Below, in pieces: positions 23,566 through 53,544 of a stretch of DNA of 59,930 bases; the stretch's first letter is position 1; each line of letters starts with the position of its first letter. The notes under the pieces are model-generated. The model was not told the DNA's origin. It did no database searches and was given only the letters and a program-made list of their open reading frames with translations. A program made the position numbers and the translations under genes. The stretch is from Fibrobacterales bacterium (GTDB lineage: Bacteria > Fibrobacterota > Fibrobacteria > Fibrobacterales > JAOPTW01), in NCBI GenBank assembly GCA_051532055.1, contig JAOPTX010000053.1, forward strand, positions 1 to 59,930, given 5' to 3'.

Positions 23566-23571
23566 ATATTC

Positions 23572-26526: not shown

Positions 26527-26645
26527 CCTGACTTCCAGCTCATTAACTTATACTTTCAGTATATCACTTTTGCAGATCTAAAACAAAGATATTTAGTGTA
26601 TCAAATGCGATGAGCCATCTTATTTTTCTGGGATGCATGATCAAT

Positions 26646-27440
26646 TTAGAGCTGATCTCGTTGCTTGTGCGTTATAACGCCCTCTTCTTCCAAAGCATTG
26701 AGCATGAGAGTATCATACTCTGTATCGCTCGACTCATTTAAAATACGTTTTAAAAATTCAACAGACACACTTGTTTTCCAAAAAGCGTCTATCTCTGCAG
26801 GCTCAAGGTATTTTTTATCAACAAGGGTATCGACTACTCTCTTTTTATCATACAATTCAGAGAGTGAGCTGTATTGAAACATTGTGAGAAACTCTTCTGT
26901 CGCGTTGTTAATTTTCACCTCTTTTTCTGCATCAGTTATAATACCTCGCTTACACAGAGATTCATAGCGATTACACTCTTCAATAATATCACTAATGACA
27001 TTTTCAGAAGTGTCTCTTGTCATCTGAGTTAGGAATTGATGCTCTTTCTTTTTGTTATTAATATGATCACGTATATACATATCCTCTTGAATAATATGTT
27101 CACAGAGCCATGCGGTTACAAACTCCTCTATCTCATATATGTTAACGTAGTCAGTCGCACCAAGATGTTTAATTTTTACCATGAGATCATTAATCAAGTT
27201 TTTATGCAGTATTTTATGCGCTGCCCTTCCAGGATATTCTGCAATTTTCATCACCTCTTCTTCAGCGGCAAAATGATGCTTCACATACCCCACAAGAAAC
27301 TTCAGCACCTTAAGGATCTCAGTGTGAGTTGTTCCTTTTTTAAAAGAGCTTTCAATAAGATCAAGCATCTTGAATAACTCTTTATGCTGTTTATCTATTA
27401 TGGGTACATTTATTGCATAGGAATCAATCCACTTCATCAT
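26646..27440 (-). CDS. Bacteriohemerythrin with additional C-terminal domain
   Basis: W...IDKQH, HFAAEE, HKILH and HIIQED di-iron ligands. Confidence 0.9.
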   Translation of the reverse strand: MMKWIDSYAINVPIIDKQHKELFKMLDLIESSFKKGTTHTEILKVLKFLVGYVKHHFAAEEEVMKIAEYPGRAAHKILHKNLINDLMVKIKHLGATDYVNIYEIEEFVTAWLCEHIIQEDMYIRDHINNKKKEHQFLTQMTRDTSENVISDIIEECNRYESLCKRGIITDAEKEVKINNATEEFLTMFQYSSLSELYDKKRVVDTLVDKKYLEPAEIDAFWKTSVSVEFLKRILNESSDTEYDTLMLNALEEEGVITHKQRDQL

Positions 27441-27449
27441 TTACTCCTT

Positions 27450-28259
27450 TTATTCGGGTACTTCTGTAGTATGGGCAATTGCACTTGTATAGATTTGTTC
27501 ATTAATCGCCTCTTCTTTCTTCAGTACATCAAGAATTAACACAGCATAGGCCGGGTCTGTATGGAGTTCGGTACACTTGAGCACCAACGCTTCGGTTATA
27601 TACGCCGAAATAAGTTGCGTGATATCAACCTCTGTTATCCATTGGTGTTCTTGCAAAAACTGTAATAACATTTTTATATCATAAATTTCTGAGAGAGAGG
27701 TCATTCGTAACCCATCCAGAGATCTATGAAGGTTAACGAGCAAATTTTCTTTGTTCTCTTCTAAGTTTTCACCTGAGGCACCTTCCATAATTTCGGTACT
27801 CGTATTAAATATTGAGATAAAAAAACCAAAAGCAGGGACTCGCATCATTGCATTCTCAGACAGTACCCCTTCTTCTCTTTCAACCCATTCACGAATCTTA
27901 AGGTCATCTTGAATAAGGTGCACATTGACTACATCAATTAACATATCAAGAAGCTCCTGAGTATTGACCTCAATCTTTTCTCTTACCAGTGCAATTTTGG
28001 TATCTAGTAATTTTAGGAGTCTCCCATGATGCTCTGAATGCTCTTCTTCTTGAGGGTATCCCAGTGATTGCATCACTCGTTCTTCGGTATAAAAATGGTG
28101 AGTAATATACCCCATGAGAAAAGTGAGAGAGCGAACAGACTCACTATTGGTCGTTCCTTTTTTGAGGGACTCCCTCAACGTTTCAACGACATAAAAAAGT
28201 ATTTTATGTTGCATATCAACAATAGGAATATTGATCAAATGTAGCTTGAGCCATTTCAT
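27450..28259 (-). CDS. Bacteriohemerythrin with additional C-terminal domain (paralog)
   Basis: VDMQH, HFYTEE, HSEHH and HLIQDD; start set at MKWLK by alignment to the paralog. Confidence 0.85.
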   Translation of the reverse strand: MKWLKLHLINIPIVDMQHKILFYVVETLRESLKKGTTNSESVRSLTFLMGYITHHFYTEERVMQSLGYPQEEEHSEHHGRLLKLLDTKIALVREKIEVNTQELLDMLIDVVNVHLIQDDLKIREWVEREEGVLSENAMMRVPAFGFFISIFNTSTEIMEGASGENLEENKENLLVNLHRSLDGLRMTSLSEIYDIKMLLQFLQEHQWITEVDITQLISAYITEALVLKCTELHTDPAYAVLILDVLKKEEAINEQIYTSAIAHTTEVPE

Positions 28260-28356
28260 AGTATGAGCATACCACACTATCATGGGGCGGGCCACTGTAT
28301 TATCTAAATTTTGACCTTATTTACCCAAAATTTGGACTATTTAGTCTATAGACAAC

Positions 28357-28384
28357 AAAAAAGCCCTCTCATAGTGAGAGGGCT
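28357..28384 (-). terminator. Rho-independent terminator after the GH5 gene
   Basis: GCCCTCTCA/TGAGAGGGC stem followed by T6 on the minus strand. Confidence 0.85.
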
Positions 28385-28418
28385 GAATAAGAAAATTTGA
28401 ATGGTTACTCGTAAAAAA

Positions 28419-31400
28419 TTACTCTGAGCACCCTACGGTTGCACCACAAGGATCTGTTGTTCCTTCTACTAACCACATATTATCTACAGTTACTGTGTTT
28501 GCCCCATTGTTTCCAATGTTGAGCACGACACGTGCCGCAGCTGTTTGAGTCATAGTGAATGTATAGACATACCGTTGCATTGCCGTGGCTAATGCAGCCC
28601 CTGAACCAATATTTGTGTAATCGGTCCAAGGAGAGCCATCAGTTTCAATTTTGATATTCGCCAAACGAGACACGGATGCTTTGCCATCATAGGCAAAAGT
28701 ATAGGTTTTTCCTGTTTCGAGAGTAAAGCCAGCCTGTTTAGGCTGTACGTTCCAATCAGAAGTCCCTGGATTTGAAATTGCGATAGCATACTGACCAGAA
28801 AGAACTGCACAGGTTGCCGCTCCCCCATAGTTACTACATTCCCATCCTGAAGTTCCTCCAGAAAAGTCACCATTGCTCAGTAAATTGATTAATCGCACTT
28901 CTGAAGTTGTAATCGTGAGTGCTGCACTCTGAGTACTTGAACGATTCCCTGCTGCATCAATTGCCTCTACACTAAATCCATAAGAAGTGAGTGCCTGTAA
29001 CCCTGTAACACTCGCACTGGTACCAGACACTGTAGTCACCAACAATCCATCTTGATACACAGCATAGGCAGTAACGCCTACGTTATCTGACGCGGCATTC
29101 CAGTTAAGACTGACAGTCGATGCAGTCACACCCGCCTCGGATACTCCATTCACTACTGATGGTTTTTCGGTATCAGGAATCACTGGTACAAAACGAATCC
29201 AGTTAATGTTTTGACTTCCCGTTGTGAAATTCAGTCTCACGGTGTGTTGATCACCATTCGCTATAGTGAATGTTCCGCTTTCGGCAGTGTTCCATGTTTG
29301 GTATTTACTTCCCGAACCCGTATAGGTTGCTGAACCTTTTGTAAAGGTCGTCGCTTTTACTCCATCTATAAGCAGATCAAATGATCTGTTTGATTCCCAT
29401 GTTGCGAGGCGCGTCTCAAGTTTCCACTGACCCGGAGCCAATGTTTGATTGCTAAATGATACCCAGCGTCCTGCAGCGGTCCAACCAATATTTTCACCAC
29501 CACCAATATCGGCGGTTACTTCAGATTGAATACTGCTATGTTTAGTACTATACGACTCAGCTTGAATGAGAAGCGCTTCTTGTAATGGCTTTTCATCAGT
29601 GGTTACCAGAACCTCAGAACTCAAGCCAGAACGATTGTCCGATGGATCGACCGCTTCAACCTGTATTGAGTATTCAGTATTTGCTGTAAGACCTGAAAGA
29701 GTAATATTCAGTGCAGTACCTGCATCCTGTACTTCAACGCCATCAACATAGACAATGTACTTTTCAACGAAAATATTATCCTGTGAAGCAGTCCATGCGA
29801 CATCTACTGTTGTCATACCGGTAGTTGAAGCAGTAGTGATTACTGGAGCAGTTGGCGCTTCTGTATCTGCTTCTGTCGTTACGACAAGTGCAGCGCTCAC
29901 TGAAGAGATATTGCGTGCTGCATCAAGCGCATAGACTGTAATACTGTATTCAGTATTATAGCTCAGGCTGATGACTGTTGCGAAAAGGTTTGTCACCTCA
30001 TTGTAGTAGCCACCATTAACAAAAATCTGGTATGATTCTACTCCAACATTATCGGTTGCTGCAGTCCATGCAACATCAACTGTTGTCATAGAAACGCCGG
30101 TTGCCACAATAGGTCCCGGTTGAGAAGGTGCTTCGACATCAGGAGCCACATCTGTAGTTACTACAACAGCACTGCCTTGTACCGATTCATTCTCAGCAAC
30201 ATCAATAGCACTCACTGTAATACTATAGAGTGTTTCAGGAGTAAGGCCCGATACTACCGTTGAGAGTACATTCGAAAGAGTCCGTGCAAGGGTTCCATTA
30301 ATATAGAGGTTATACCCCTCAACGGCAACGTTATCCGTTGATGCATTCCACTGAAGTGCAATAGTGCTATGAGTTACTGTACCGGCAACTAATCCTGCTG
30401 GTACGGATGGCGCTTCACTATCAGAGAGTGTTCTAAAAAGTTGTGCACTGCTTTTTGCAGAACGATTCCCTGCAGCATCTTTTGCAACAATTTGAATAGC
30501 ATATTCGCTATCAATAGTAAGGCCATCGAGGGTAGTGTTTGGTGTATTCACCGATTGTACCAGCGCTGTTCCAACATACACATCGTACCCCACAACTGCG
30601 GTATTATCTGTTGAAGGATTCCAGCTTATCTCTAACGAGTTAAGGGTTGCGGTAGTGAGTGCAACATTTTGTGGTATCGATGGTGCTTCTGCATCTTGAG
30701 GAATACAGCTTTCTGTTTCTGCAAATACCACATCATCGATAATAACATCGTTTGTTCCATTACCACCCAGTTTAAAACCAACTTTTAAGTCAGCAAAACT
30801 AAACGCTGAGGTAAACGTGTGTGAATATTGAGTCATTGTTGTTGAGAGTGTATGTGCCGCTGATGTTACCGCTTGATACGGCGCACCATTTTGTTCAATC
30901 ATAAGAATGAGGTCACGAACACCCGTAGCGCGAGCGCGATATTTTACAACGTACTCTTTTCCGCTTTCAATTGACGTGGAGTTCCACACCTGAATCTGCC
31001 AGTCAAGTCCTGCCTGAGTAATATCAGCATGAAGCTCTCCTGATTGTTCGGTAAAGGTCCCTTGTCCACTCGTTCCTTCTACCCAATTGTCCCAGCCGGT
31101 CATTCCATCATCAAACGAACTATTGGTCAAGATATTTGTACACGGTTCAAAAGTAGATCCTTGTACATTGATAAGAACATTGTCGGTATGGGTACGCCCA
31201 TCATTATCTGTTACGGTTAATGAAATAGTGTGTATGCCATCATCAAGTGCTATTGCAATTGATGCACCCGTTCCGAGTACCACATCAGCCTCTTTCCATT
31301 CATACTGTTCGATAGTCCCATCAGTATCTACTGCTGAACCACTCAACGTCACCGGCTCACCAGGGAGCTGGTCACTATCAATGATGACTTGATCGACCCC

Positions 31401-32573
31401 TGCATTCGCGGTAGGGCGACCACTGCCCACACATGGATTACACGGCAGGTAGTTGTCTTTTTCTTCAGCTAAAAAGTCTTTTACATAGCGTCCCATATAC
31501 CCAGGGCCTTCAGCGAGTGTCGTAAATTGATCATCGGTAAACATAATTGACTCAAACGCATTATCAAATGCCCACGCAGTCCAACTCATATTGTGGTCTT
31601 TCATATACTGTTTAATAAACTGACCAAAGCCATCCTGATCAATCATTTTACCTGACCCATCACAGTTATTAAACGGACAAACGGTGCCATCTTGATAGCC
31701 AAATTCAGTTACAACAACAGGATAATTATTTACGGTTTCTCCTACTTTAGAAGCAAGGGTTGCGTCTTCGTACCAGTGCCATGGATACACATGCAGTGTA
31801 TAGGCGATACGCTCAACAGCGGCAGGATCTTCGATTGGATTATCATTAATGTCTTTGAGCATTTGCGTCCACCACGGTGAACTCACCAGAATAAGATTTT
31901 CTGTTGCTCCAATAGTATTACGTATAAAATCTACCATTGGCTGTGCAATATCATCTTTAAAGGTAGACCATGCAATATCCCCATTTGGTCCACAGTCATC
32001 GGAGCTACAGTTATCATCAGATACTGGTTCGTTATATATTTCGAAAATAACATTTGGATTATTACGGTAGCGGTCTGCTGCCCAGCTCCAGAACTCAGCT
32101 ACTTTTGCCCAACCCATGATAGAGTAGTTCCAGTTATTGATCGCATGATAATCAAGAATACAATAGATATCCTGAAGCTCGCACTCATCAACGGCTGCAT
32201 CAATAAATGACGTCCACTCTTCTGGTGCTTCGTTCCAGCCAGCAAAAGGCCAACCGCCCCCAATAGGATGTATTGGAACGCGTATGAGATTTGAATGCCA
32301 CCCTTTAGATGCATCACTCGCAAGACGAATGGTTGCACGGAGTTGATTTTCTGGTGTATCAGCAAGTTCGTTGCTGTAGTGTCCCGCGATTGGATTACGG
32401 AGTGTCCCAGTAAATTTTGCGTCTGCAATAGATACCCCACGTAATACAACGATATTATCATCACTATCACACAGTGTGTTCTCACAACGATGTAATTTCG
32501 ATACCGCCCCTTGTACCGCAGTAACAGTCCCACATATTAATGCCAGTATTAGTACTATTTTCTTTATTTTCAA
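28419..32573 (-). CDS. Modular secreted GH5 glycoside hydrolase (GH5-PKD-CBM4/9-FN3x4-CBM6-like-FN3-CBM4/9)
   Basis: Signal peptide; FEIYNEP acid/base, LHVY, VVTEFG nucleophile; five D.E.PS.P...W....DN FN3 repeats; TTG start. Confidence 0.9.
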   Translation of the reverse strand: MKIKKIVLILALICGTVTAVQGAVSKLHRCENTLCDSDDNIVVLRGVSIADAKFTGTLRNPIAGHYSNELADTPENQLRATIRLASDASKGWHSNLIRVPIHPIGGGWPFAGWNEAPEEWTSFIDAAVDECELQDIYCILDYHAINNWNYSIMGWAKVAEFWSWAADRYRNNPNVIFEIYNEPVSDDNCSSDDCGPNGDIAWSTFKDDIAQPMVDFIRNTIGATENLILVSSPWWTQMLKDINDNPIEDPAAVERIAYTLHVYPWHWYEDATLASKVGETVNNYPVVVTEFGYQDGTVCPFNNCDGSGKMIDQDGFGQFIKQYMKDHNMSWTAWAFDNAFESIMFTDDQFTTLAEGPGYMGRYVKDFLAEEKDNYLPCNPCVGSGRPTANAGVDQVIIDSDQLPGEPVTLSGSAVDTDGTIEQYEWKEADVVLGTGASIAIALDDGIHTISLTVTDNDGRTHTDNVLINVQGSTFEPCTNILTNSSFDDGMTGWDNWVEGTSGQGTFTEQSGELHADITQAGLDWQIQVWNSTSIESGKEYVVKYRARATGVRDLILMIEQNGAPYQAVTSAAHTLSTTMTQYSHTFTSAFSFADLKVGFKLGGNGTNDVIIDDVVFAETESCIPQDAEAPSIPQNVALTTATLNSLEISWNPSTDNTAVVGYDVYVGTALVQSVNTPNTTLDGLTIDSEYAIQIVAKDAAGNRSAKSSAQLFRTLSDSEAPSVPAGLVAGTVTHSTIALQWNASTDNVAVEGYNLYINGTLARTLSNVLSTVVSGLTPETLYSITVSAIDVAENESVQGSAVVVTTDVAPDVEAPSQPGPIVATGVSMTTVDVAWTAATDNVGVESYQIFVNGGYYNEVTNLFATVISLSYNTEYSITVYALDAARNISSVSAALVVTTEADTEAPTAPVITTASTTGMTTVDVAWTASQDNIFVEKYIVYVDGVEVQDAGTALNITLSGLTANTEYSIQVEAVDPSDNRSGLSSEVLVTTDEKPLQEALLIQAESYSTKHSSIQSEVTADIGGGENIGWTAAGRWVSFSNQTLAPGQWKLETRLATWESNRSFDLLIDGVKATTFTKGSATYTGSGSKYQTWNTAESGTFTIANGDQHTVRLNFTTGSQNINWIRFVPVIPDTEKPSVVNGVSEAGVTASTVSLNWNAASDNVGVTAYAVYQDGLLVTTVSGTSASVTGLQALTSYGFSVEAIDAAGNRSSTQSAALTITTSEVRLINLLSNGDFSGGTSGWECSNYGGAATCAVLSGQYAIAISNPGTSDWNVQPKQAGFTLETGKTYTFAYDGKASVSRLANIKIETDGSPWTDYTNIGSGAALATAMQRYVYTFTMTQTAAARVVLNIGNNGANTVTVDNMWLVEGTTDPCGATVGCSE

Positions 32574-32820
32574 TTCGCCCTCGATTGTTATCCCAGTTTA
32601 TAGTGCCCGCAAAGGTAGGAATTTCTTGGCTACAGCTCTTTCTGTTACTATCAATTTTACACTGGGAGACCATTACGCGACACCGTCTCATACTCCCCCT
32701 AAAAAGGGTATTAATTTTTAGTTATTTCACCCAACTATTTGTATTTTTTTAAACGTCAACTCTTGTTATATATTAATTCACTCCACCATTTTAATCGCTC
32801 CTATCCAATAAGGACTATTC

Positions 32821-33291
32821 ATGAGAACCCTTTCACTTCTGATTCCCCCACCTCTCGTCATGACTCTTTTTGGGGCACTTCAATGGGGCGTTACCCCCAC
32901 TCCTTTTCTATTCCCCTCCTCATCATCTCTTTTTTGGGTTTGCATAGGGCTTCTTCTTTTTCTGTCGGCAGTGTTTGGCCTTGGCGGAGTCATTCAATTT
33001 ATACGAGCGAAAACAACCGTAAACCCGCTGAAGCCCGAAACAACCTCATCACTCGTCACCTCAGGTCTTTACGCGCTAACCCGCAACCCTATGTATGTGA
33101 GTTTCTTATTCCTATTATGTACTTTGGGAATGTTCCTCTACTCTCTGTTAGCCATAATCCCGATTGTTGGTTTTATACTCTACCTCAATCGTTTTCAGAT
33201 TATCCCTGAAGAGTCGTATCTCAAAAAATTGTATGGCGAAACCTTCAGTGATTACTGTAAGACAACGCCTCGTTGGTTATTTTTAAAATAG
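32821..33291 (+). CDS. Isoprenylcysteine carboxyl methyltransferase/PEMT family membrane protein
   Basis: TTVNP, LVTSGLYALTRNPMY, FQIIPEE, TPRW. Confidence 0.9.
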   Translation: MRTLSLLIPPPLVMTLFGALQWGVTPTPFLFPSSSSLFWVCIGLLLFLSAVFGLGGVIQFIRAKTTVNPLKPETTSSLVTSGLYALTRNPMYVSFLFLLCTLGMFLYSLLAIIPIVGFILYLNRFQIIPEESYLKKLYGETFSDYCKTTPRWLFLK

Positions 33292-33328
33292 CACTCATCA
33301 GTACTCATCAACACTCACCAATATACTG

Positions 33329-36300
33329 TTATTTTCTTACGTAGCCAAAGCGCCTAATAAACGAACTCATAGGCGTGACTCCACCAGGAAAGTAATAGTT
33401 CACTTCGAGAATGGCGATATAGACACCAGTGCCCACGAGTCGTCCTCGACTACTCACGGGCTCCCACCCAAGCCACAGCCAGTGTGCCTTGTCTGGATCA
33501 GTACAGTCCCCATCAAAGAGTTTTGGATCACTACACTCAACAATATTGTGAGCACTTGATACATACCCTCCGATAGTACTATACACTATGATAGAGTATC
33601 CAATTGAAAGCTCACTTTTTAAGGATTCATATTCAAAAGTACTCAGGGTATCTTCATCAATCTGAGAGAGCACCATATCGAGCATATTGGCAGAAATGAC
33701 AATACCTACCTCATCAAAATCCTTACGCGCTTCTTCTACCACTTCTTCTAATGAACTATTGGGATCATCAGGAGAAATCCCCCGCAGGATAAACGATGAA
33801 TTGTCTCTATCGTGAAACCGTTCTAACACCTCTTCTGGATTATCATACTCTTTGAGAGCAACAGCACCACTCAAAGGAGTTACCGTCCCCGTAATCATAA
33901 TACTCAGCGCATGGTCGCTCGGTCTGTTTCCATGAATATCAGCGATGTATCCTCTCCCTACAACAAATGAGAGACTATCGCCGGGTGAAATCTGAAACTC
34001 TTTTTTAACTGAAGGATCATAATTGAGCCCATGCTCACTCTGCTCACCATTCAAGGTGATTACACTCTGCTCAGCCCTCAGCTGATGCTCTTCTGCATCT
34101 TTATATCTATGTCGAAACAAATAGTGTTCTCTGCCCTCTTTCTTACGGTCATTCTCTTCTACGGGCTCAGACAGTACTACCATCAGTACATCCCCTTCGG
34201 GCCGCTGAAACACTTCGGCGGTTACCAGAACCGGTGCCATACCGTCTTGCATCTCTATTGTATACTCGGCATCATCTTCTTCAGTCAGAGATGCAACCTC
34301 TATTTCGGCTTCAATAAAGGCATCATCTACGATACTTGTGGTGAAAGGCCGACAATCAATATCGTCAGAGAGATCCCAATAGGCCCGTCGCTCATCATCC
34401 GGGTCTGGGTGCCACTGGGAGGGTTTCACCTTGAACGACACGGTAGAATCTTCGCTATTGATCCACTTAAAATGCGCCGTGACCTCAGCAATATTATCAC
34501 CGATAATCACATCATTAAACAAAAGCTCAACACGGTCCATGATACCATCCTCATTAGTATCCCTAAAGTAGTGTCCTTCTTTTACTGGTTGCACCGGCCA
34601 GCCACCGATAACCCTGGGCATATTAGGGTTCCCCGGCCCATTACTCTTAAGATCAACCATATCAGTACGGTGATCGATTGCAATACTATCCCCCACAGCA
34701 AGGGAATATTTTTCTGCATCAATTGCAAAATCCCAAACGCGTTTTTTCGTGTACGACTCAGTATCCGTTGCGCTAACCGATGCACCCTCTATTAAAAAGA
34801 GCGCCTTTTGTACTTCCACCTCAGTGACGGGTTCAGAAAAAACAACCCGCACCGTATCGTGTGTATCCTCTCCATCTTTTTTAAGATAGGCACGCCGAAT
34901 CACCGGCCCAATCTCATCTTCAATTTCTTTCGAGTCTTCGAATACTGTATCACCTCTTTTATAAAACTGTACGGTCACTTCACCATGAACATCGGTTGCG
35001 ACATCATCAGCACCCGATGTAAAGGTATCAATGATCACTAATCGAGCACTGTTTGTAGGGTCAATAGTCCAGGTATCTGAATCATACTCCGTCTCGACAC
35101 AGCTCTTATCTGATACTCCCAGACAAATGGTGAGCTCCTTAGGGTCGCCTGACCAATTCTTAAAAATGACGACTAAACTATCGGCATAGCCATCCTTGAC
35201 CTCACTCACCCGCTCCCCTTTGGTAACAACTCCCGAATCAAAGAGCCTAACCGACTCAATAGAAGGTGTTGGGATTTCAGTAAATATAAGGAGAGGTGAC
35301 AATGCACTCTGCTCTTGATCAATCCGGGTCCCCTTGCCTGAATACTCAACTGATATGCGCAGATTATCGACACTCATTTCGCGCTCCATAGGAAGGACGG
35401 TGAAGGAAAAACGTCCCTGAGAGAGTGACTCGTTAAAAGGTTCAAGGTGTGCGTCTTCTCCCTCTGCAATAGAGAGGATTATGGCGTCATTACACGACTC
35501 ACAGAGTATCCGAGTACTATCATAGTCATAATCATAGATCTCCCCATAGAGCACTACTGCACTGTCAACCCGGGAGTAAATATCGTCATCAGACAGAGGG
35601 GTACCCAAAGAGTCGGTAAATACTATCTCGTATGGATACCGATCGGGTACCACAAACGATACTGACCCCTGATACTCAGTACTCTCGGTTGATGACTCTG
35701 AACGATGGATGAGATAATAGGTATGTCCAATTTCGAGCCTCTTAAGCTTTCCACGCTCTATGGTAAACTGGTATTTATTATTATCAATAGTGATACCGTC
35801 AAAATAAGTGTCACCGTGGTGTAACTGTATATCTTTTGATGTGCTTAATGTCTTTGAAACTGAAGAGAGGTCGAGGGTAGCATCATAGCTCAAATAAAAC
35901 TCTGATTCTTTTACTACTTCTCCTCCTTTGACATGGCACCCATTACCAAGAGATTTACCAGGCACCACATCATAATGAATAGCATCATCGGTTATATGAC
36001 CATATTCGGGCGGCATATCAAAGTCGATATCGGTTTGAATCTGTAGGTTTGAGGCAAGGGTATGTCGCTCACAGTAGAAGAGATCAAATTCATGGCTACT
36101 TCCGGCTGCTGCCCCACCTCGTTCGTTAAACAGCTGATCCAGATGCAGGGTCTCCCAAATAGGAGTATGGGTCCCGCCAAGGTCGACTGCTAGTTGTCCA
36201 TCAATAAAAATCCATAGGTCATCGTCACCATTAAAGGTAAACTGTTGACCCGGTCTATAATCAAACGTAAGCTCCGTTTTCATACAGTAGTGATAATTGT

Positions 36301-36865
36301 GAATGTACCCTGTTGTTGTTGCTTGGGGTTCATCATGGCGAGAAGAGTAGTGCTGATTCATTTGGTTTTTACCATTACGCACCTTATGAGTATTTTCCCA
36401 AAAGTCATCAAGGGGAAAGAACCCACTCTGTAGATCGATCTTCTCTGGGGAATTAGTTGGAGAATCATAGAACTGAGTGAGAGCGGTATATTCATATACC
36501 TTGTCGTGATCATTGTAATCGAGTTCAAGGTCGATACAGGTATAGTTTGAAGAGTCGACCTCTGGGCGAAACCATTCAGTCACGCGCTCGGCCCGGCAGT
36601 TATGACTGTCCCAAGAGTCAACCTTAACGGGTAACCGTTCATCATTGAGCCACTCACCAACCAGCCCCTTTGTGGGGCTGCCATTAAGCCCACAATCAGT
36701 ATCAAACTGAAAGGCGTCACCTAAGTCACCCGCATTCCAGTCATAGAATTCGGCGGGAAGCCGTGTCGTTAATAAGTGTTGTGTAGAATCACCCTCTGCA
36801 GAATAGAGTGAAGAAATTGCCATAAGCAACGAAATAGCGATTCCGCTATAGCGTAAAGTAAACAT
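33329..36865 (-). CDS. Fibro-slime domain protein
   Basis: Signal peptide; GFFPLD, HNYHYC, FTFNGDDDLWIFIDGQLAVDLGGTH, FYCERH; C-terminal GRLVGTGVY. Confidence 0.88.
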   Translation of the reverse strand: MFTLRYSGIAISLLMAISSLYSAEGDSTQHLLTTRLPAEFYDWNAGDLGDAFQFDTDCGLNGSPTKGLVGEWLNDERLPVKVDSWDSHNCRAERVTEWFRPEVDSSNYTCIDLELDYNDHDKVYEYTALTQFYDSPTNSPEKIDLQSGFFPLDDFWENTHKVRNGKNQMNQHYSSRHDEPQATTTGYIHNYHYCMKTELTFDYRPGQQFTFNGDDDLWIFIDGQLAVDLGGTHTPIWETLHLDQLFNERGGAAAGSSHEFDLFYCERHTLASNLQIQTDIDFDMPPEYGHITDDAIHYDVVPGKSLGNGCHVKGGEVVKESEFYLSYDATLDLSSVSKTLSTSKDIQLHHGDTYFDGITIDNNKYQFTIERGKLKRLEIGHTYYLIHRSESSTESTEYQGSVSFVVPDRYPYEIVFTDSLGTPLSDDDIYSRVDSAVVLYGEIYDYDYDSTRILCESCNDAIILSIAEGEDAHLEPFNESLSQGRFSFTVLPMEREMSVDNLRISVEYSGKGTRIDQEQSALSPLLIFTEIPTPSIESVRLFDSGVVTKGERVSEVKDGYADSLVVIFKNWSGDPKELTICLGVSDKSCVETEYDSDTWTIDPTNSARLVIIDTFTSGADDVATDVHGEVTVQFYKRGDTVFEDSKEIEDEIGPVIRRAYLKKDGEDTHDTVRVVFSEPVTEVEVQKALFLIEGASVSATDTESYTKKRVWDFAIDAEKYSLAVGDSIAIDHRTDMVDLKSNGPGNPNMPRVIGGWPVQPVKEGHYFRDTNEDGIMDRVELLFNDVIIGDNIAEVTAHFKWINSEDSTVSFKVKPSQWHPDPDDERRAYWDLSDDIDCRPFTTSIVDDAFIEAEIEVASLTEEDDAEYTIEMQDGMAPVLVTAEVFQRPEGDVLMVVLSEPVEENDRKKEGREHYLFRHRYKDAEEHQLRAEQSVITLNGEQSEHGLNYDPSVKKEFQISPGDSLSFVVGRGYIADIHGNRPSDHALSIMITGTVTPLSGAVALKEYDNPEEVLERFHDRDNSSFILRGISPDDPNSSLEEVVEEARKDFDEVGIVISANMLDMVLSQIDEDTLSTFEYESLKSELSIGYSIIVYSTIGGYVSSAHNIVECSDPKLFDGDCTDPDKAHWLWLGWEPVSSRGRLVGTGVYIAILEVNYYFPGGVTPMSSFIRRFGYVRK

Positions 36866-37096
36866 GATGCCCCGTCCGTTTACTGTGTGTTGTCAGAAAT
36901 CAAACCTTCCCCAAGTACCCATTGATCTCTGATGTGCTTATTTCTCTAGGTGCACTAATTTAGGAAGATGTACAATCAATTTCAAACAAAGAATTGTAAA
37001 ATCTACAGTACCCCACGAGGGAGAACGTGTATACAAAACGAGTACAGAAATTTTTATTATGGCTTTAACTAAAATAGGCTCAAAAGAAAGCAGAAA

Positions 37097-37498
37097 CTAC
37101 ATAAATTCTTTGCGTAACTCTTCGGGAATTCGCTCAACATTACTTTCACGAGGACCGACTCGTTCGCCTGTTGGCTCGGTAGTCGTCGCGATATGATTCG
37201 CATTAGGAAAGTCAGACCGCAAATTTGCATAGACGCGCTCTTCATTACGAAGGATATCTAAGAAATAGGGCATTTGGTCAATGTGACGATTTATGGAGGC
37301 AAAGCTCCCGTCTTCATTACAACTTGGTAAACGGGTAGTAGCATAGGGAGCCGCAAACATTATGATCATTTGTTGTCCATCGGCACCAGAACATTCGATA
37401 TACGCCTGGGAATGGCGACTTCCGCCCATATATGAGCCATCAAGGTCAAAGCCCATCCGTACAGTGTAGTCTATTATTTCATAAGTGATATGTGCCAT
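37097..37498 (-). CDS. Hypothetical protein
   Basis: 133-aa ORF with GGAG RBS; no recognised motif. Confidence 0.7.
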   Translation of the reverse strand: MAHITYEIIDYTVRMGFDLDGSYMGGSRHSQAYIECSGADGQQMIIMFAAPYATTRLPSCNEDGSFASINRHIDQMPYFLDILRNEERVYANLRSDFPNANHIATTTEPTGERVGPRESNVERIPEELRKEFM

Positions 37499-42799: not shown

Positions 42800-44431
42800 C
42801 TATTTTGGACCTCGCAAATCAAACGATGCTATGATGTCAGATTTAAAAACTTCTATTTCTTCTTTCCATTTATCATAGAAGCTTTCATCTCCAACAAATT
42901 CAGTAACTTCTTTTTTAATTGCGGGATCCAGTACTGCTGCCCAAGTATCAATTTTATCAATGATATACTCTTCATTCATATAGGTTTGATAAAACTCCTT
43001 CTGAAGTACATTGTATTCATCTTCATAATAGGTCATCGTTTTAAAAATATTGTCACAGGCAGCTGAACGTTGTGGTGCAGATCCACCGGTCCCCGGAAAG
43101 ACATCACAATCATCAGTCACCTCATTCCAGTCATCTTGAACCCAGGTGAACTGATTATGGAGATTATTAACATTTACACTGGAAAAAGAGTGATCTAAAT
43201 CCCACGGTATCAGGTGCAGTTTTTTAGAGGTCGGTTCTTGATACCAAAAATAATTATGAGGATAACACAATTCGGCAATACCATTATGACAAAACCATTT
43301 CATCGCTCCATCATCATTTGCGATTGCTCTATCAACAACAATATACCGAAGCATCTTATCTATGGAAGCATAGCGACTGAGAATATCTTTACGATCTTCT
43401 CTGCTCTTTGCACGAGAGAATTGAGTGGTAAATTCAAGCATTGAGGACACATCCGGGGAATCTTCATTTGTCTTAAGACCTTTCACCAGATATTCCTCGG
43501 GCATTACGTCGCCTGCAGAAGTAAGGGGCCAGGTCTCCTTAAATAAATTTCCTTCAGAATCATTTGGAAAATGACGTTCAACAAATTCTTTATCAATCTG
43601 CTCAACATTACCATACAGCCCCATATAGGTATCATTAAAATAGAGTTCAGCATGTGAAGCCCGAGGAGCCGGGATATCAAACTTTCTGAACAGATGATAC
43701 CCAAGCTTATCATGCAGTTTCGTTCCATCTAAGCTAAGCGTATGAAACTGCAGTTTACGCAATCCATAAAAGCGCCCACTATTCCCCTTCCAATTAAATT
43801 TTAATTTAACTGAGCATTTACCTCCATCTATTTTAGGCCCATCAAAATTTTCAAATACTTTAATACATCCAATCCAGCCGCCCACTGAACCTTTATACCG
43901 CACACCAACAGGTTGAATTGTATCACCTTCGAAAACCAGTTTTGCTTCTACATACTCTTCGCGCGTTGGTTGTGCATCAAGAAACTCTAAATCAGCTTTA
44001 TCGATAAGTATCTGATACTTTCTAATGACATCGGACTCAAAAAGGTATGAGGCCTTTTTTTCATCTTCAACAACAATGGTTGAACTTGAGGACACTACTG
44101 AGTGAGACGAAACCCCTAATTGAGAAGAACTCGAAAGCCCACTATCAGATTCACCACTTTCACTACTTGCACTACTCACGTTTTTCTCATTACTACTCAT
44201 ACTACGAGTACTGCTACTCGTATTGCTATTAATCGACTGAGGGTCATTGGTAACAGAGAGATTGTGTGATGATTCTTGATTCGTATCATTTGAATTCTGT
44301 TCATAGGAGGAGTCACTGGTATTTGCAGATTCTCCAGGCACAGTGATATCACTTGGAGTTACATCTGTGCATGACATTAAAAACAACACCATATACATTG
44401 ATACAAATAGTATAAATCTGAATGCAGTCAA
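42800..44431 (-). CDS. CotH-family kinase lipoprotein
   Basis: Lipobox LMSC, Ser-rich linker; VGVRYKG, IPAPRAS, YMGLY.NVEQID, HNYFWY, IPWDLD. Confidence 0.85.
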   Translation of the reverse strand: MTAFRFILFVSMYMVLFLMSCTDVTPSDITVPGESANTSDSSYEQNSNDTNQESSHNLSVTNDPQSINSNTSSSTRSMSSNEKNVSSASSESGESDSGLSSSSQLGVSSHSVVSSSSTIVVEDEKKASYLFESDVIRKYQILIDKADLEFLDAQPTREEYVEAKLVFEGDTIQPVGVRYKGSVGGWIGCIKVFENFDGPKIDGGKCSVKLKFNWKGNSGRFYGLRKLQFHTLSLDGTKLHDKLGYHLFRKFDIPAPRASHAELYFNDTYMGLYGNVEQIDKEFVERHFPNDSEGNLFKETWPLTSAGDVMPEEYLVKGLKTNEDSPDVSSMLEFTTQFSRAKSREDRKDILSRYASIDKMLRYIVVDRAIANDDGAMKWFCHNGIAELCYPHNYFWYQEPTSKKLHLIPWDLDHSFSSVNVNNLHNQFTWVQDDWNEVTDDCDVFPGTGGSAPQRSAACDNIFKTMTYYEDEYNVLQKEFYQTYMNEEYIIDKIDTWAAVLDPAIKKEVTEFVGDESFYDKWKEEIEVFKSDIIASFDLRGPK

Positions 44432-44556
44432 AAGATTTCCTTAATGTGGATAGTACCGTTTTTTGCTCTATGAGCAGTACCGATTATTATAAGGAAAATA
44501 TATACTGTAATTGAGAGAATAGTATGAAAGCGAGTACCTATTTACAATCATTAACA

Positions 44557-44720
44557 CTGGAGAGCATCTTGAGAACAGTGAGATGCTAGCGGTGTTATTT
44601 TACAACCGAGAGGCTGAGCGGTAATGCCTAGTCAACCCATGCAACAATGATTCACATCAAAATACTCAATGATACACCCGGCTTTTACACTGGTTTACTC
44701 TGGAGAACAATCGGAGAACA
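44557..44720 (+). promoter_or_regulatory. Two copies of an 11-bp-period direct repeat, candidate regulator sites
   Basis: GAGAGCA-N4-GAGAACA (44560-44577) and GAGAACA-N4-GAGAACA (44703-44720), both preceded by CTG. Confidence 0.45.
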
Positions 44721-44793
44721 TTTTGTGATTCATTTTGACTAATATGGCAAAATATTTTTTGGTCTATACAGAAGTTCTACTTATATTAGTTCT

Positions 44794-45076
44794 ATAAAAG
44801 AAGAAACATTCCGGAATAATCGATGGGCACATTCTTTAGCAATGCCACCATTGGGTATTGAATAGCTCCGGTGATTCTTCACACTTAGGGACGGGACGAG
44901 AGTGACACACCTCTTGGCATTACAAAAATTACAGAATTAATTTGGGATATTTTCTCTCAAAAATCCAGCATAGAGGACTCCCCCAAAGCAAGCGCAAGTA
45001 CATATATTCATTTTCCCCGATGAGTGTCCCAGTGTGTGCTTGTGCTTGTTTATACTCATTCACCGCAATGAGTATA
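44794..45076 (+). ncRNA. Candidate structured non-coding RNA or leader, family not recognised
   Basis: Series of stems including a 19-bp helix with 4 G-U pairs and no mismatch (44986-45004/45033-45051); upstream TTGGTC-N17-TATATT. Confidence 0.5.
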
Positions 45077-45186
45077 ATACATTCTACCGATAGCTGATCA
45101 AGAAATATTATACAATACAAAAAACGTTTTTCATTTTTAATAATATAGATTCATACCGAGGTACTATTCAAAGTAACTCAAATAGG

Positions 45187-46710
45187 ATGCGTATAATGAC
45201 TCTGTCTACAAAATTTTTGATCGTTCCCTCAGTACTCTGGGGCAGTATACTTTTTATATCTGCATGTAGTGGTGATGCGAATCTTAATCCAGAATCCACT
45301 CTCGAAATATCTAGTTCACACAATGAACATTCTTATTCTTCAGGATTGGATACTGCACTCGACAAATCTTCAGTAGAGGCACTCTCTCAATCGGTATCAA
45401 TTGACGATACAGAGTCACATGCTTCGACACCAATGAGTAGTGACACTACAGAATCAGAGACAACCGCATCGTCGAGCCAAGATACCTCTGAGTCAAATAA
45501 TTCTTCAGAAGAGACGTCATCACAGGATAGTGCCACCCGTTCATCCAACACATCTACTCAGAGTTCTTCTACTGCCCAATCTCTTTCAAGTAGCAGTGAA
45601 CCCACAGCACTCCTTACATCAGACCCGGGAACAGAGCCATGGGTTCTTGTGGCCTCACAAGATGTAGCACGTGAATGTGGATTAGACCCGGATTTATTAG
45701 CCGCAGCAGATATCCAAATTGCGCGATCGTATGCAGTAGTGCGCTTTGGAAAACTGTGTCACGAATATTACCCCAATGGAGAACCCACCGTTGACGAGTT
45801 AACCCATGTGTATTCTGCTTCGAAAACTCTTGCTGCAGTGACCATAGGAACGGTTGCCTATGAAACAAAAGATATTACCACTGATGGCCGTAAAACAGGT
45901 CCCCTCTCTGAGCTCGACCGAGTAGATCATTGGCTCGATGCCAAAGATATCTCATACAACTCAAACGCCTATGTTGAACACCTTCTCGCTATGGTTGCCT
46001 ATAATGATGACCTCAGCCACGGTGCAAAAAGTTTTAGTTATGATGCCGACGGCAGCAGAGAAATCCAAACCCTCGCTACCATTATGGGCACAGCCATTGC
46101 GCAAGACGCAGAAAGACTCGGGAGCAGCGTCAAAGAATTTACTGAGAATTATATTTTTAAACCACTCGGCATGCATCACTCCAAATGGAATAATTCATGG
46201 GGATCAAACTACCCTCCTATGGCCTATGGGTGGAACACCACTGTACGAGATATGGCACGTCTCGGATTACTCATTATTCATGAAGGTGTATGGAATGGTC
46301 AGCGTATTTTAGACGAATCCTGGATATACAAAATGACGCACCCCGCGTTCGAAGATGCTCAAAAATCATATGGATACCTTACCTGGCTCGGTGCATCATG
46401 CGCTCCTTCTCCGATACACACTTCGTACCCTCATGGGTTATCAGAAGCAACAGACTGTGGAAGTTTTTGGGGATGTGATCAAGAGTATGATGTAGGAGTC
46501 TGGAGTGCAATCGGCATGTATGGGCAGATAATTATGGGCCATAAAGGCCTCGATCTCGTATTAGTCGTAAAGGATTATGACCCTAACGACGGTTCTGATT
46601 TATGGGAGGCAGTGCGCCCGGCATTGGTTAGCCATGACTCTGAATACAATGGTGATGAATCTGCATTTTGCGATGAGTATAGTGCCGGAAGGTATGCGCC
46701 CAATTTGTAA
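45187..46710 (+). CDS. Serine hydrolase (beta-lactamase-like) lipoprotein
   Basis: Lipobox ISAC, Ser/Thr linker, SASK (SxxK), IFKPLGM, RDMARLG, YGYLTW. Confidence 0.8.
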   Translation: MRIMTLSTKFLIVPSVLWGSILFISACSGDANLNPESTLEISSSHNEHSYSSGLDTALDKSSVEALSQSVSIDDTESHASTPMSSDTTESETTASSSQDTSESNNSSEETSSQDSATRSSNTSTQSSSTAQSLSSSSEPTALLTSDPGTEPWVLVASQDVARECGLDPDLLAAADIQIARSYAVVRFGKLCHEYYPNGEPTVDELTHVYSASKTLAAVTIGTVAYETKDITTDGRKTGPLSELDRVDHWLDAKDISYNSNAYVEHLLAMVAYNDDLSHGAKSFSYDADGSREIQTLATIMGTAIAQDAERLGSSVKEFTENYIFKPLGMHHSKWNNSWGSNYPPMAYGWNTTVRDMARLGLLIIHEGVWNGQRILDESWIYKMTHPAFEDAQKSYGYLTWLGASCAPSPIHTSYPHGLSEATDCGSFWGCDQEYDVGVWSAIGMYGQIIMGHKGLDLVLVVKDYDPNDGSDLWEAVRPALVSHDSEYNGDESAFCDEYSAGRYAPNL

Positions 46711-46878
46711 TGGTTGAATTGGTTTGTCTCAAGGCCATCTTTAAGAGCCTCCCACTCTCTCCAGTACAATTGCATAACCCTCCAACAGAATCAAGAGTGT
46801 ATTGTAATAGGGATTAATGTTCCTTTATTAAAAAGCGCTTTAAACCTTTTCTACACAGACAGAGCAATATGGTCACAA

Positions 46879-50787: not shown

Positions 50788-53451
50788 TCAATAATACCTT
50801 ACGACAACCGACCCAGTGCGCACATGTACCGGCACCGTTAAAACAGCATCTTTAACACGGCCCTCAAAGAGCTTTTGCCCATAGATAGAATAGAGTATAC
50901 CGTGCCGTGCCCCTTCTGGAAGCCTGATTTGAGGAGCAGTACTCCTGACAACCATCCACTGCCCCTCTGAAGTATACCTTGTGTTATTAACGGCTATTGG
51001 AGTTACAGGTGCTGAACTACTACTCGTCGCATTTGAAGATGCTCCGTAGCTATTCTCCTCTTCAGTAAATACAGATGAGCTGCTGCTTATTTCGATTGCT
51101 TCACTCGATTCACTATTGACTATAGCAATTGAGAATGGATCTACCATAAGTTCCTTTTTCATATATCCGTATCCATAGGAAAGAGTTACCGTATCTTCGG
51201 GGACACTTGTAGTATTGGTAAAGTATTCTGAATGTGCCGATTCTTCATAGAGGATTACCTGAGTGATCTCTCCATTTTTTGCCGTTACCTGAACCGTCAT
51301 TTGCTCCACTGCACTATAATCAAAATTAAGCGGTGCTTTTGCTCGTATTACCATGGAGCCCTGCATCTGTTTCACCGAAAGTTCTGTATCAAAATAGGCA
51401 AGATACGCCAGGGTGAGATTAAAGGGAAGATTGTGTTGAATCCATCCTTCGGTCCAACCAATGTCTTCAATTTCCGGATGATACGGATAGTGTTCATCTT
51501 TGGGACCGCCATCAATAACAAACCGAGCATCTGCCAATCGCCCGATCCCTCCTTGATAAAAGGAATACCACCCGACATCAACCCCTTCAATTTCTTTGGG
51601 TGCGTCATACGAAAAGTGCCGGCCTGTCGGGTTTCTTCCAAAGGCGTTGTCTATGTGTGCATACACTAATTGCGTGAGTCTTTCATGCATAGTGCTATCT
51701 GAAATTACCTGCAGAGCTGCCAGCATACAGGCGGGCGTTCCTACCACATTCCCGGGTTCGTTCCACGCAGTAGGAGCATCCCCTGTTGGTACCCAACCCT
51801 CAGTATCATCCACTTTTCGAAAATCCCACATGTTATCAGATCGATTGATTGCGGTTTGTGCCCAAGCCGTAATTTTTTCTTTCAAACCAGTCGGAGCTTT
51901 TGCGGGATATTCCTTGAGCATCATTGAAAGTCCAGTCATAGTGTGAAATTCACTGACACGCTGACCCTTGGTAGTGATAGGATCATTCCAATCAAGATTT
52001 TGGATCATCCATTCTACCTGATTAAAAGCTGCGGTAAAATACTTTTCTGCATCGGCAATGCCTTCGCGCTCTGCAACTGCATACATGAGTAGGTTGGGTA
52101 TAACGGTCCGGCCAGGTGGCAGTGCTCCCTTGGTGGTTCCCATTTTTGTTTTAAGAGCCAGAAGATTGTGTTCAGGGCTTTCGTCATACATATATGATTG
52201 ATCAGCACCACTGTTTTCCCATACCGATAGGGTAAAGTCTAATACCGTCTGATAGTTTTGCTCTGGCAACCATTGCTTTAGCTGTGGCCAGGCATATAAA
52301 AAATAGGCCAACTGCGCTTTCAGATTTTCATGGGTTCTCTGTTGAGTAACCAAAATGTCAGCACCCCAGTGAATCAATTTAACGATATCGGGTGCGTCTT
52401 CAGTATAAGCGGAAAGACTCCCCCAGAGCGAACTGTTAGTAGAGGGCGCATAGGTAATTTGTGAGGGCATTCTCATATAGGCATCGGGGTTGGATACATA
52501 TTGTGGCACAAGCACGTGAAGCTCCCAGCCAAAATGATGGTCGTCTCTCCAGCCAAAATTCTGACCCCCTGGATCCTCTGTAAAAGTCCCTACCCACATG
52601 CGGCTGTCAATCATAAAGTCGATGGAATTCTGATAGGAGACTCTTTCGAGCCACCAGGCCTCGATGCGAAACGGAAAAGAGGTACTGGTATCGGCTGTGA
52701 TTACATATTCAATACTTTCCGTTGGATTAACTGGGTTGAAGCTGGTAAAGTCACCCAGATTATTATTGATCACTCCTGTATAGAGTATAGTGCCCGAGTA
52801 TTCTTCTTTGATCGAAAAAGGCGTTCCGTCTGGCAGGGTGGGGGCAGTAAACCGCTTTGGTTTATTTAGATTATAGCCACTCTGGTTTATGTATATTACA
52901 GGCACTACCACAGGTTCATTACTCTGGTATCCGGTTACCCCCGTTCCGAGCTTCGGTATTCCTATATCAGAGAGCTCCCATACAGAAACTTCATGAACCC
53001 GTGCGATTTCTGACGGTGTCTTTGATATGATGATACGCAGCGTATCGGTTCGTACTTCGACCGTAGCATCAAAAGCCACAGAAACTCCGAGGGAAGTATT
53101 ACCCGTAACCACTGCTGACGGGATTGCGGTCCACGAACCGTTACTCGCGAACTCTATTCTAAAATCATTGACGGGGTCTCGCCCTTCGTATCCCGAATAG
53201 AAATGGATGCCACCCAGCACGGTAATGCTGTCTAGGGCAATGGTAATCCTCGACTCAGCTTCTGCCGCACTCAGCCAGCGGGATTCATCCGATATTACGC
53301 CATCAACTGCATTTTCTTTACTGTAGGTTGCGCCATACACAGAACTGACGATGACCGGCTGATTAAGAGCGAGGTTTTCCGGTGCAGAAATACCGTTACC
53401 ATACATAAAAAGCAACAGGAACATAATTAATGCATGATTAGAATTTCTCAT
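50788..53451 (-). CDS. Secreted discoidin (F5/8C) domain protein with cellulase-N-Ig-like and putative alpha-barrel catalytic domain
   Basis: NLALNQPV...AVDG...SRW; INQSGY..NKPKRF; AFGRNPTG; Ser linker and C-terminal tail. Confidence 0.65.
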   Translation of the reverse strand: MRNSNHALIMFLLLFMYGNGISAPENLALNQPVIVSSVYGATYSKENAVDGVISDESRWLSAAEAESRITIALDSITVLGGIHFYSGYEGRDPVNDFRIEFASNGSWTAIPSAVVTGNTSLGVSVAFDATVEVRTDTLRIIISKTPSEIARVHEVSVWELSDIGIPKLGTGVTGYQSNEPVVVPVIYINQSGYNLNKPKRFTAPTLPDGTPFSIKEEYSGTILYTGVINNNLGDFTSFNPVNPTESIEYVITADTSTSFPFRIEAWWLERVSYQNSIDFMIDSRMWVGTFTEDPGGQNFGWRDDHHFGWELHVLVPQYVSNPDAYMRMPSQITYAPSTNSSLWGSLSAYTEDAPDIVKLIHWGADILVTQQRTHENLKAQLAYFLYAWPQLKQWLPEQNYQTVLDFTLSVWENSGADQSYMYDESPEHNLLALKTKMGTTKGALPPGRTVIPNLLMYAVAEREGIADAEKYFTAAFNQVEWMIQNLDWNDPITTKGQRVSEFHTMTGLSMMLKEYPAKAPTGLKEKITAWAQTAINRSDNMWDFRKVDDTEGWVPTGDAPTAWNEPGNVVGTPACMLAALQVISDSTMHERLTQLVYAHIDNAFGRNPTGRHFSYDAPKEIEGVDVGWYSFYQGGIGRLADARFVIDGGPKDEHYPYHPEIEDIGWTEGWIQHNLPFNLTLAYLAYFDTELSVKQMQGSMVIRAKAPLNFDYSAVEQMTVQVTAKNGEITQVILYEESAHSEYFTNTTSVPEDTVTLSYGYGYMKKELMVDPFSIAIVNSESSEAIEISSSSSVFTEEENSYGASSNATSSSSAPVTPIAVNNTRYTSEGQWMVVRSTAPQIRLPEGARHGILYSIYGQKLFEGRVKDAVLTVPVHVRTGSVVVRYY

Positions 53452-53486
53452 TCAAACTCATTCTTTAATACATGAGTTTGAATGAG
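53447..53486. promoter_or_regulatory. Perfect 15-bp inverted repeat covering the start codon of the 53451 gene
   Basis: CTCATTCAAACTCAT-N10-ATGAGTTTGAATGAG. Confidence 0.6.
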
Positions 53487-53544
53487 GTCTTTATAGGTAC
53501 AGGTACTATCCATGTAATAAAACTATATCAGTGTACGTACAATG

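Follow-up and report, generated by a model that had tools for sequence, protein, structure and literature searches.

Organisation of the intergenic region

The gap at 44432-45186 (755 nt) separates a CotH kinase-like gene from a divergent lipoprotein gene, and only gene starts face it. The source genome (5.17 Mb, 39.6% GC, 181 contigs) contains an RNase III gene. The other genes of the window, by which we mean the whole stretch of DNA that was analysed (59,930 nt, about 60 kb), code for hydrogenase subunits, two-component proteins, a GH5 cellulase, a GH3 enzyme and FISUMP-domain proteins, and a scan of 35 ORFs (120 aa or longer, kept after overlap filtering) in the 60-kb window found no recombinase, transposase or phage gene. 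The features of the locus are given below, where the homolog is the corresponding allele of a congeneric genome.

42800-44431, minus strand: CotH kinase-like protein gene, divergent, upstream of the gap
44438-44579, minus strand: CotH upstream region, common to a second CotH-like gene elsewhere in the genome (nhmmer E 2e-17)
44700-44720, plus strand: direct repeat GGAGAAC-N4-GGAGAAC (11-bp period) resembling a response-regulator box, located where the gap has its longest run free of substitutions
44743-44764, plus strand: left arm of the outer inverted repeat, predicted closing helix with 45096-45117
44759-44789, plus strand: promoter candidate of an earlier note, TTGGTC-N17-TATATTAG, scoring 8/12 here and 9/12 in the homolog
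44800-44880, plus strand: rod-like 5' domain (GAAGAA/TTCTTC, CCGGA/TCCGG, CGATGG/CCATTG), marginal support
44881-44984, plus strand: middle segment with a G-rich GGGAC repeat, the promoter-like sequence 44914-44945 and a CUCCCCC tract, z about 0
44986-45051, plus strand: long hairpin, made of a 19-bp helix, a 6-nt bulge, a 7-bp inner stem and a C-rich loop
45050-45077, plus strand: hairpin 2, a perfect 11-6-11 palindrome with arms TTATACTCATT / AATGAGTATAA and loop CACCGC
45096-45117, plus strand: right arm of the outer inverted repeat, predicted closing helix (helix 1, 88.6% of cells paired)
45187-46710, plus strand: lipoprotein gene, with a Ser/Thr-rich linker and a beta-lactamase-fold domain, downstream of the gap

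To judge from its sequence, the 44438-44579 region is part of CotH regulation and lies outside the hairpin element. The GGAGAAC-N4-GGAGAAC repeat has a second copy at 44557-44577 and occurs three times genome-wide. The motif GGTACTAT, found close to both start codons, was discarded because it showed no enrichment: it has 303 genome sites, and 40 permuted 8-mers have 26-401. None of the small ORFs in the gap evolved like coding sequence in the two-genome comparison; a 51-codon frame was open in both species, with 12 of its 51 residues differing. These ORFs change in protein as fast as in DNA, which argues that they are not coding.

Folding of the gap

The earlier note, made from the letters alone, had proposed a single structured RNA of about 280 nt ahead of the lipoprotein gene. 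All the helices listed in it were present (6/6 pairs for GAAGAA/TTCTTC, 5/5 for CCGGA/TCCGG, 6/6 for CGATGG/CCATTG, 6/6 for TTTGGG/CCCAAA, 19/19 and 7/7 for the outer helix and inner stem of the long hairpin and 10/10 for the second hairpin). The outer helix (44986-45004/45033-45051) does form 19 pairs out of 19 with exactly 4 G-U, the inner stem (45005-11/45020-26) 7 out of 7 with 2 G-U, and the bulge reads UCCCAG. The similarity of the inner stem to the arms of hairpin 2 was also confirmed. The genome has 50 perfect palindromes of this format (6-nt loop, arms of 11 bp or more), hairpin 2 among them, and the arms of the 19-bp helix contain a tandem hexamer, GCTTGT twice.

When the 44794-45080 region was folded, the plus strand reached -81.4 kcal/mol (z -3.91) and none of 200 dinucleotide shuffles was as good, whereas the minus strand reached -74.1 kcal/mol (z -1.22) and was equalled by 22 of 200; the expectation that the region folds better than shuffled sequence was thus borne out on the plus strand and failed on the minus strand. 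The two hairpins (44980-45080) gave z -9.8 on the plus strand (0/200 shuffles as good) and -2.6 on the minus strand, the 5' rod (44794-44884) -2.5 (4/200) and -1.7, and the middle segment (44881-44984) -0.08 (88/200) and +0.18; the latter stayed at about 0 on both strands in both species. The excess folding is therefore almost wholly in 44985-45077, and what had been taken for a 280-nt RNA is really a tandem hairpin of about 95 nt with a marginal 5' rod.

A local-fold scan of both strands of the 60-kb window, with z-scores, placed the long hairpin third (z -6.4) among 68 hits below z -4; other similarly strong folds were mostly at gene ends, while this one is found where two genes begin. In the source genome the two-hairpin module folded to -40.4 kcal/mol on the plus strand versus -24.8 on the minus strand, an asymmetry of 15.6, and every imperfect pair of its long hairpin was G-U on the plus strand, with no A-C. 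RNase III substrates have some 20 bp of duplex RNA without a break, a length that the 19-20 contiguous pairs predicted in both species match. As sequence and predicted fold, then, we find the tandem hairpin to be real, non-random, very stable and previously unannotated.

The outer 22-nt repeat had 17/22 matches in the source genome, a value reached by 5 of 60 shuffles, and 19/22 in the homolog, reached by none of 60. Folds of 44738-45122 from both species contained the closing helix and both hairpins, in the minimum-energy as well as in the centroid structure, with plus-strand z of -4.0 in the source genome and -6.0 in the homolog; in the latter the minus strand of this 385-nt stretch was lower in raw energy (-107.4 vs -99.2), but not in z. 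No target-site duplication was seen by eye at the edges of the repeat, which could be an RNA closing stem or else the ends of an old insertion or invertible segment.

Neither flanking gene ends in the gap, so the hairpins are no terminator for them. An intrinsic terminator was rejected as well, since the scanner called neither hairpin and no U-run follows 45077. The usual long hairpins of this genome are terminators with an A-tract, a GC stem, a U-tract and loops of 3-4 nt. Our hairpin census, seeded with 7 Watson-Crick pairs, describes that terminator population only, and it missed the long hairpin because G-U pairs break every seed.

Promoter search

A genome consensus, TTGACA-N16/17-TAnnTTTG, was derived from 30 upstream regions of tRNA genes or gene-cluster heads. 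Scores of at least 10/12 against it were obtained in 19 of these 30 regions, compared with 21 of 600 shuffles and none of 30 opposite strands. The promoter put forward earlier, TTGGTC-N17-TATATT at 44759-44787, is present as a sequence, but its score is within the shuffle range, given that shuffled 120-nt sequences reached a score of 8 in 482 of 600 cases and of 9 in 149 of 600. The best promoter-like match in the gap was TTGGCA-N18-TAATTTGG at 44914-44945 (10/12, identical in the homolog), about 40 nt upstream of the long hairpin; by our estimate a scan of this size should give about half a match of score 10 by chance. A sigma-70-like sequence, TTTATA-N18-TATAAT, overlaps hairpin 2 and scored by hand about 7/12 against the genome consensus, below the reporting threshold of 9. 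No promoter candidate in the gap stands out from chance.

Distribution of the element

The absence of a known RNA family, as the earlier note had anticipated, held in Rfam scans of the window and of 44300-45300. With Rfam 15 (4227 models) at gathering thresholds there was no hit in the whole window, and a permissive scan of 44300-45300 (E up to 10) returned only 4 chance-level hits, which scored 11-20.5 bits where the thresholds are 50-100; the best of these had E of 1 or worse, and no sRNA family was matched. By BLAST, nhmmer (E up to 10) and a covariance model built from the two-hairpin domain, the element was single-copy in its own genome, where the covariance model recovered the locus and its own opposite strand only; the multiple copies that a MITE, IS end or REP would show were not found with any of the three. 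Among 41 relatives searched by BLAST only one congeneric genome (G001) matched, with 90% identity over all 755 nt, and across the order the covariance model found the element in 2 of 151 genomes (the source, G000, and G001). A metagenome scan with the lipoprotein gave three loci (48-49% identity), all from GC-rich organisms and all lacking the element, and no match to it was present in plasmid and phage collections. As far as these sequence searches indicate, the element is restricted to one genus.

One DNA run contains the stretch, and both alleles, that of the source and that of the homolog, co-occur there. Its contigs had no strand-changing joints, although contigs would miss a rare orientation. 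A loose end in this run, at position 44739, points to a possible third variant that is more diverged. No RNA run on record contained the stretch; a very small one derived from that sample (12 million letters) gave contigs only at 43870-44020, inside the CotH gene and outside the gap.

Divergence between the two alleles

Fourfold-site divergence was 0.168 in the CotH gene and 0.129 in the lipoprotein gene, and the gap (44432-45186) diverged by 0.098 with 1 gapped column. In the adjacent syntenic block, fourfold-site divergence was 0.51 (eight ORFs pooled), and its six gaps diverged by 0.32 with 115 gapped columns. Since the locus is far more alike than its surroundings and the two alleles occur together in one run, the tract made up of CotH, gap and lipoprotein gene has been exchanged recently. 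Divergence inside the gap was 0.097 for the element, 0.104 for the left part and 0.075 for the two hairpins, and the ratio of gap to fourfold-site divergence was 0.67 here versus 0.63 in the six other gaps. The element thus diverges at an ordinary intergenic rate, which indicates no special constraint.

Between 44794 and 45080 there were 30 differences, 15 of them within the 170 paired positions of the minimum-energy fold of the source, so that paired positions were not depleted. Outside the long hairpin domain, 9 pairs of that fold were hit by substitutions and none was kept in the homolog; of the 14 changed pairs listed in the comparison, 8 were outside this domain and all 8 were broken. Together with the confinement of the signal to about 95 nt and the middle segment of z about 0, this speaks against a single structured RNA some 280 nt long. 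In the long hairpin itself, pairing survived at 5 of the 6 pairs that changed, each with G in the source and A in the homolog opposite U. The 19-bp helix remained 19/19 through three G-U to A-U replacements (3 changes in 38 arm positions), one pair of the inner stem was broken, and hairpin 2 was 100% identical. The chance of keeping at least 5 of 6 pairs neutrally was about 0.015 if the homolog state is ancestral and about 0.28 if the wobble-rich state of the source is, figures of our own calculation that use a 19:11 split of transitions and transversions counted by hand over 44794-45080 in two sequences with no outgroup. A covariation shuffle control gave 234/500, a statistic that carries no meaning with two sequences only.

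Of the remaining helices, GAAGAA/TTCTTC kept 4/6 pairs in the homolog and TTTGGG/CCCAAA 5/6, CCGGA/TCCGG was unchanged, and CGATGG/CCATTG carried one compensatory change (G-C to A-U); the plus-strand z of the homolog 5' rod was -2.7. The alternative pairing claimed for ACACT..GGGAC with GTCCC..AGTGT was complete in the source (5/5 and 5/5), but in the homolog ACACT/AGTGT fell to 3/5 pairs with two C-A mismatches, GGGAC/GTCCC being kept with one wobble. The two-hairpin module of the homolog reached -37.4 kcal/mol on the plus strand versus -35.5 on the minus strand (z -10.05 vs -6.3; 0/200 shuffles as good on the plus strand); of the four G-U pairs in its outer helix, three were A-U. Full folding as a plus-strand transcript only, which had been advanced from the G-U pairs, was therefore found in the source genome (-40.4 vs -24.8) and not in the homolog; with the two strands nearly equal there, the strand argument is true for one allele only.

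A proposed hairpin module in the lipoprotein leader and its alternatives

Tentatively, and at something short of an even chance, we favour a model in which the lipoprotein mRNA has a long 5' leader and the hairpins form a static module in it, as plus-strand RNA. The lipoprotein gene has the same orientation as the module and begins 110 nt 3' of hairpin 2. The module (44985-77), possibly enclosed together with about 240 nt of upstream sequence by a long-range helix of 14-22 bp (44743-64 with 45096-45117), would offer a duplex of 19-20 bp that may be a processing or stability determinant for an RNase III-type double-strand RNase, or else a platform for protein binding. The module would govern how long the lipoprotein message lasts or how it is processed, and would neither sense a ligand nor switch. 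Transcription of the module and the start of its transcript, cleavage or binding of its duplex and an effect on the lipoprotein are what we infer from the fold and its position.

That the structure is instead a neutral relic, with nested inverted repeats left by an inverted duplication, template switching or an old insertion and now decaying without function, appears rather unlikely, but it is a serious rival. The element evolves at the rate of the rest of the gap, with the same gap to fourfold ratio as in the six other gaps, and it is confined to two congeneric genomes out of 151 in the order and absent from the metagenome loci. The arms of the homolog are near-perfect in Watson-Crick terms, as after a recent inverted duplication, and the source differs from them by transitions only; the tandem GCTTGT hexamer fits slippage and palindrome correction, and none of the 8 changed minimum-energy pairs that lie outside the hairpins was kept. 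A relic does not account as readily for plus-strand pairing kept in 3 of 3 changes in the helix arms and 5 of 6 in the whole hairpin, nor for an element present in one copy, in a 60-kb window where mobile-element genes were not found and with no sign of a target-site duplication, and a 19-20-bp repeat with z about -10 surviving in both lineages would be unusual for junk DNA. It is unlikely, though a serious rival too, that the repeats act as DNA, with hairpin 2 and its diverged copy in the long hairpin, about 48 bp apart, serving as two dyad-symmetric sites through which a dimeric protein, either a regulator or a recombinase, would control the CotH or lipoprotein promoter. The 11-6-11 dyad of hairpin 2 is perfect, fully conserved and overlaps TTTATA-N18-TATAAT, the inner stem has similar half-sites, and the same 22 arm bases occur upstream of an NTP_transf_8 gene in 8 alphaproteobacterial records. 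However, no regulator or recombinase gene is adjacent or in the 60-kb window, the overlapping promoter reaches only about 7/12 against the genome consensus, and the 19-bp outer helix is left unexplained, being 15/19 Watson-Crick in the source and hence a poor DNA repeat, but perfect as RNA. The cross-phylum match is itself near chance: the 50 such palindromes in the genome, when scaled to the collection searched, predict by our estimate about one coincidental lineage, so that the match is a lead and not evidence.

Two larger RNA readings were also considered. The whole 375-nt stretch 44743-45117 might be one lineage-specific non-coding RNA, closed by the 14-22-bp terminal helix, with four C-rich single-stranded tracts displayed on the tandem-hairpin scaffold. 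Its promoter would lie at the GGAGAAC repeat (44700-20) and depend on a response regulator, and its role would be that of a regulatory leader or of a trans-acting mimic of an anti-Shine-Dalgarno sequence, directed at surface-protein genes of a marine, cellulose-degrading lineage of Fibrobacterales. We regard this as decidedly improbable. The 280-nt switch of the earlier note, an sRNA or riboswitch-like leader at 44794-45076 driven from 44759-87 and toggling between the long helix and the ACACT..GGGAC/GTCCC..AGTGT pairing, is very improbable. All its pairings are present in the source, the whole stretch has a plus-strand z of -3.9, the C-rich unpaired tracts and the G-rich GGGAC repeat are conserved, and CGATGG/CCATTG shows its one compensatory change. 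Against this, one half of the alternative pairing is 3/5 in the homolog while the competing helix stays 19/19, the middle third has no excess structure and 4 of the 6 GAAGAA/TTCTTC pairs are left there; the promoter does not rise above noise, nothing in Rfam matches, and the switch has no attached terminator or start-site sequestration, the 110 nt between hairpin 2 and the ATG being AU-rich and outside predicted helices. In our view there is hardly any probability that the 22-nt outer repeat marks the ends of a MITE-like insertion or of an invertible promoter segment: the repeat is above chance in the homolog (19/22, 0/60 shuffles) and brackets the element exactly, but that of the source (17/22) is reached by 5/60 shuffles, no recombinase is encoded in the 60 kb, the element is single-copy and unmatched in plasmids and phages, and the DNA contigs, which would miss a rare orientation, have no strand-changing joints. 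In integrons, attC core sites are paired R''/R' sequences with the consensus RYYYAAC...GTTRRRY at the base of a hairpin, located at the 3' end of a cassette ORF. An attC site was rejected here, because the helix base AAAGC...GCTTGTTT and its flanks are, by eye, unlike these cores and lie between gene starts, not after an ORF.

Comparison with known systems

The rnc and pnp leaders of E. coli carry 5' stem-loops with long duplexes that are RNase III processing and stability determinants. The static leader module that we favour resembles them in having a predicted duplex of about two turns (19-20 bp) upstream of a co-oriented gene and no ligand-binding architecture. It differs in that its sequence is unrelated to the described leaders, it is found in one genus and its second, perfect hairpin has no counterpart in them; transcription and cleavage are here predicted only. 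C-rich unpaired motifs (UCCC) are characteristic of staphylococcal Rsa-type sRNAs, and at this locus, also in a low-GC genome (39.6%), a CUCCCCC tract, a UUCCCCG loop, the UCCCAG bulge and the CACCGC loop are predicted to be unpaired. Unlike those sRNAs, the element has no terminator after its hairpins and matched no Rfam sRNA family.

If transcribed and functional, the module would be one of the earliest regulatory RNA candidates from Fibrobacterota other than Fibrobacter itself, and would suggest post-transcriptional control tied to a surface lipoprotein gene; the titles and abstract openings covered by our literature search named no transcription-start or sRNA study for Fibrobacterota. The Fibro-purF motif, the one Fibrobacter-specific structured RNA among those titles and abstract openings, is presented in PMC7668255 as a candidate cis-regulatory RNA of Fibrobacter, upstream of purF, with about 30 representatives and comparative support. 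Going by that account, both are lineage-restricted candidate RNAs of the same bacterial group, but the present one comes from two genomes only and Rfam scans of its locus matched nothing. For now we regard the element as a genus-restricted hairpin whose function is putative and whose single homolog was recently exchanged. The by-products of the analysis, namely the promoter consensus and the exchange tract at CotH, gap and lipoprotein gene, may serve the annotation of the lineage better.

The dyads upstream of NTP_transf_8 genes (Bradyrhizobium-like) have the same 11-nt arms as hairpin 2 and, as here, a related dyad at a distance of some tens of bases. In the alphaproteobacterial records the dyad occurs alone or paired 58 nt apart, and its arms are invariant while the spacers vary, in an operator-like manner. 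The flanking genes are unrelated to those found here, where there is no adjacent regulator and the spacer is not palindromic, and the likeness is within chance. A further match to the hairpin 2 arms was the same element in one Fibrobacterales MAG record. For the looser core ACTCAT-N4-10-ATGAGT we counted 12 genomic sites, compared with about 4 expected from base composition by our own calculation.

A probable exchange tract around the tandem hairpins

The tandem hairpins lie between two divergent genes, in the following arrangement:

42800-44431 (-), CotH kinase-like gene
44432-45186, gap of 755 nt
44985-45077 (+), tandem hairpins
45187-46710 (+), lipoprotein gene

When the source genome (G000) was compared with the congeneric genome carrying the homologous locus (G001), the divergence at fourfold sites was 0.13-0.17 in the tract comprising the CotH-like gene, the gap and the lipoprotein gene (42800-46727), and 0.51 in the adjoining syntenic block (22465-37498). 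Synteny between both genomes stopped shortly 3' of the lipoprotein stop codon, and a single DNA sequencing run (X1) contained both alleles of the tract. The tract looks like the product of a recent recombination or transfer between two co-resident lineages.

A loose contig end from the same run, corresponding to 44739 onward, points to a third variant of the element's left edge, more diverged than the other two, which would provide the outgroup required for polarising the substitutions in the hairpins.

Within the syntenic block, a 156-codon ORF (32739-33209) differed from G001 in 58% of its residues but at only 3 of 31 fourfold sites; this reading frame probably does not represent a genuine gene.

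Promoter consensus and repeated motifs

The promoter consensus of the source genome, derived genome-wide from the regions upstream of 30 tRNA genes, was TTGACA-N16/17-TAnnTTTG, a hybrid of a σ70 -35 box and a -7 motif of the Bacteroidota type. Scores of at least 10/12 were obtained in 19 of the 30 tRNA upstream regions, as compared with 21 of 600 shuffles.

A direct repeat of the GGAGAAC-N4-GGAGAAC type, with an 11-bp period, occurred only three times in this genome, always in the 44432-45186 gap or upstream of a CotH-like gene, and is a candidate response-regulator box:

44557-44577, gap
44700-44720, gap
9534-9554 of contig C42, same genome

Two similar segments of about 17 nt (44441-44457 and 45160-45176; GGTACTATyCA..., 82% alike as an inverted pair) were located 18-19 nt upstream of the two divergent start codons; their 8-mer was not enriched across the source genome.

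Other hairpins and palindromes

The top-strength local hairpin of the window (53443-53488, z about -7) contained an ACTCAT...ATGAGT core, and one of its arms covered the ATG of an F5/8 type C domain gene (50788-53451, -).

An AT-rich palindrome, near-perfect over 28-30 bp (arms TTATACTCATT / AATGAGTATAA), was found upstream of an NTP_transf_8 nucleotidyltransferase gene in the alphaproteobacterial sequence records L026-L028 and L030-L034, and also in L035-L041; it probably serves there as an autoregulatory operator. Its hosts were GC-rich Bradyrhizobium-like genomes; it was often paired, 58 nt apart, and was confined to a single locus per genome in all five genomes searched.
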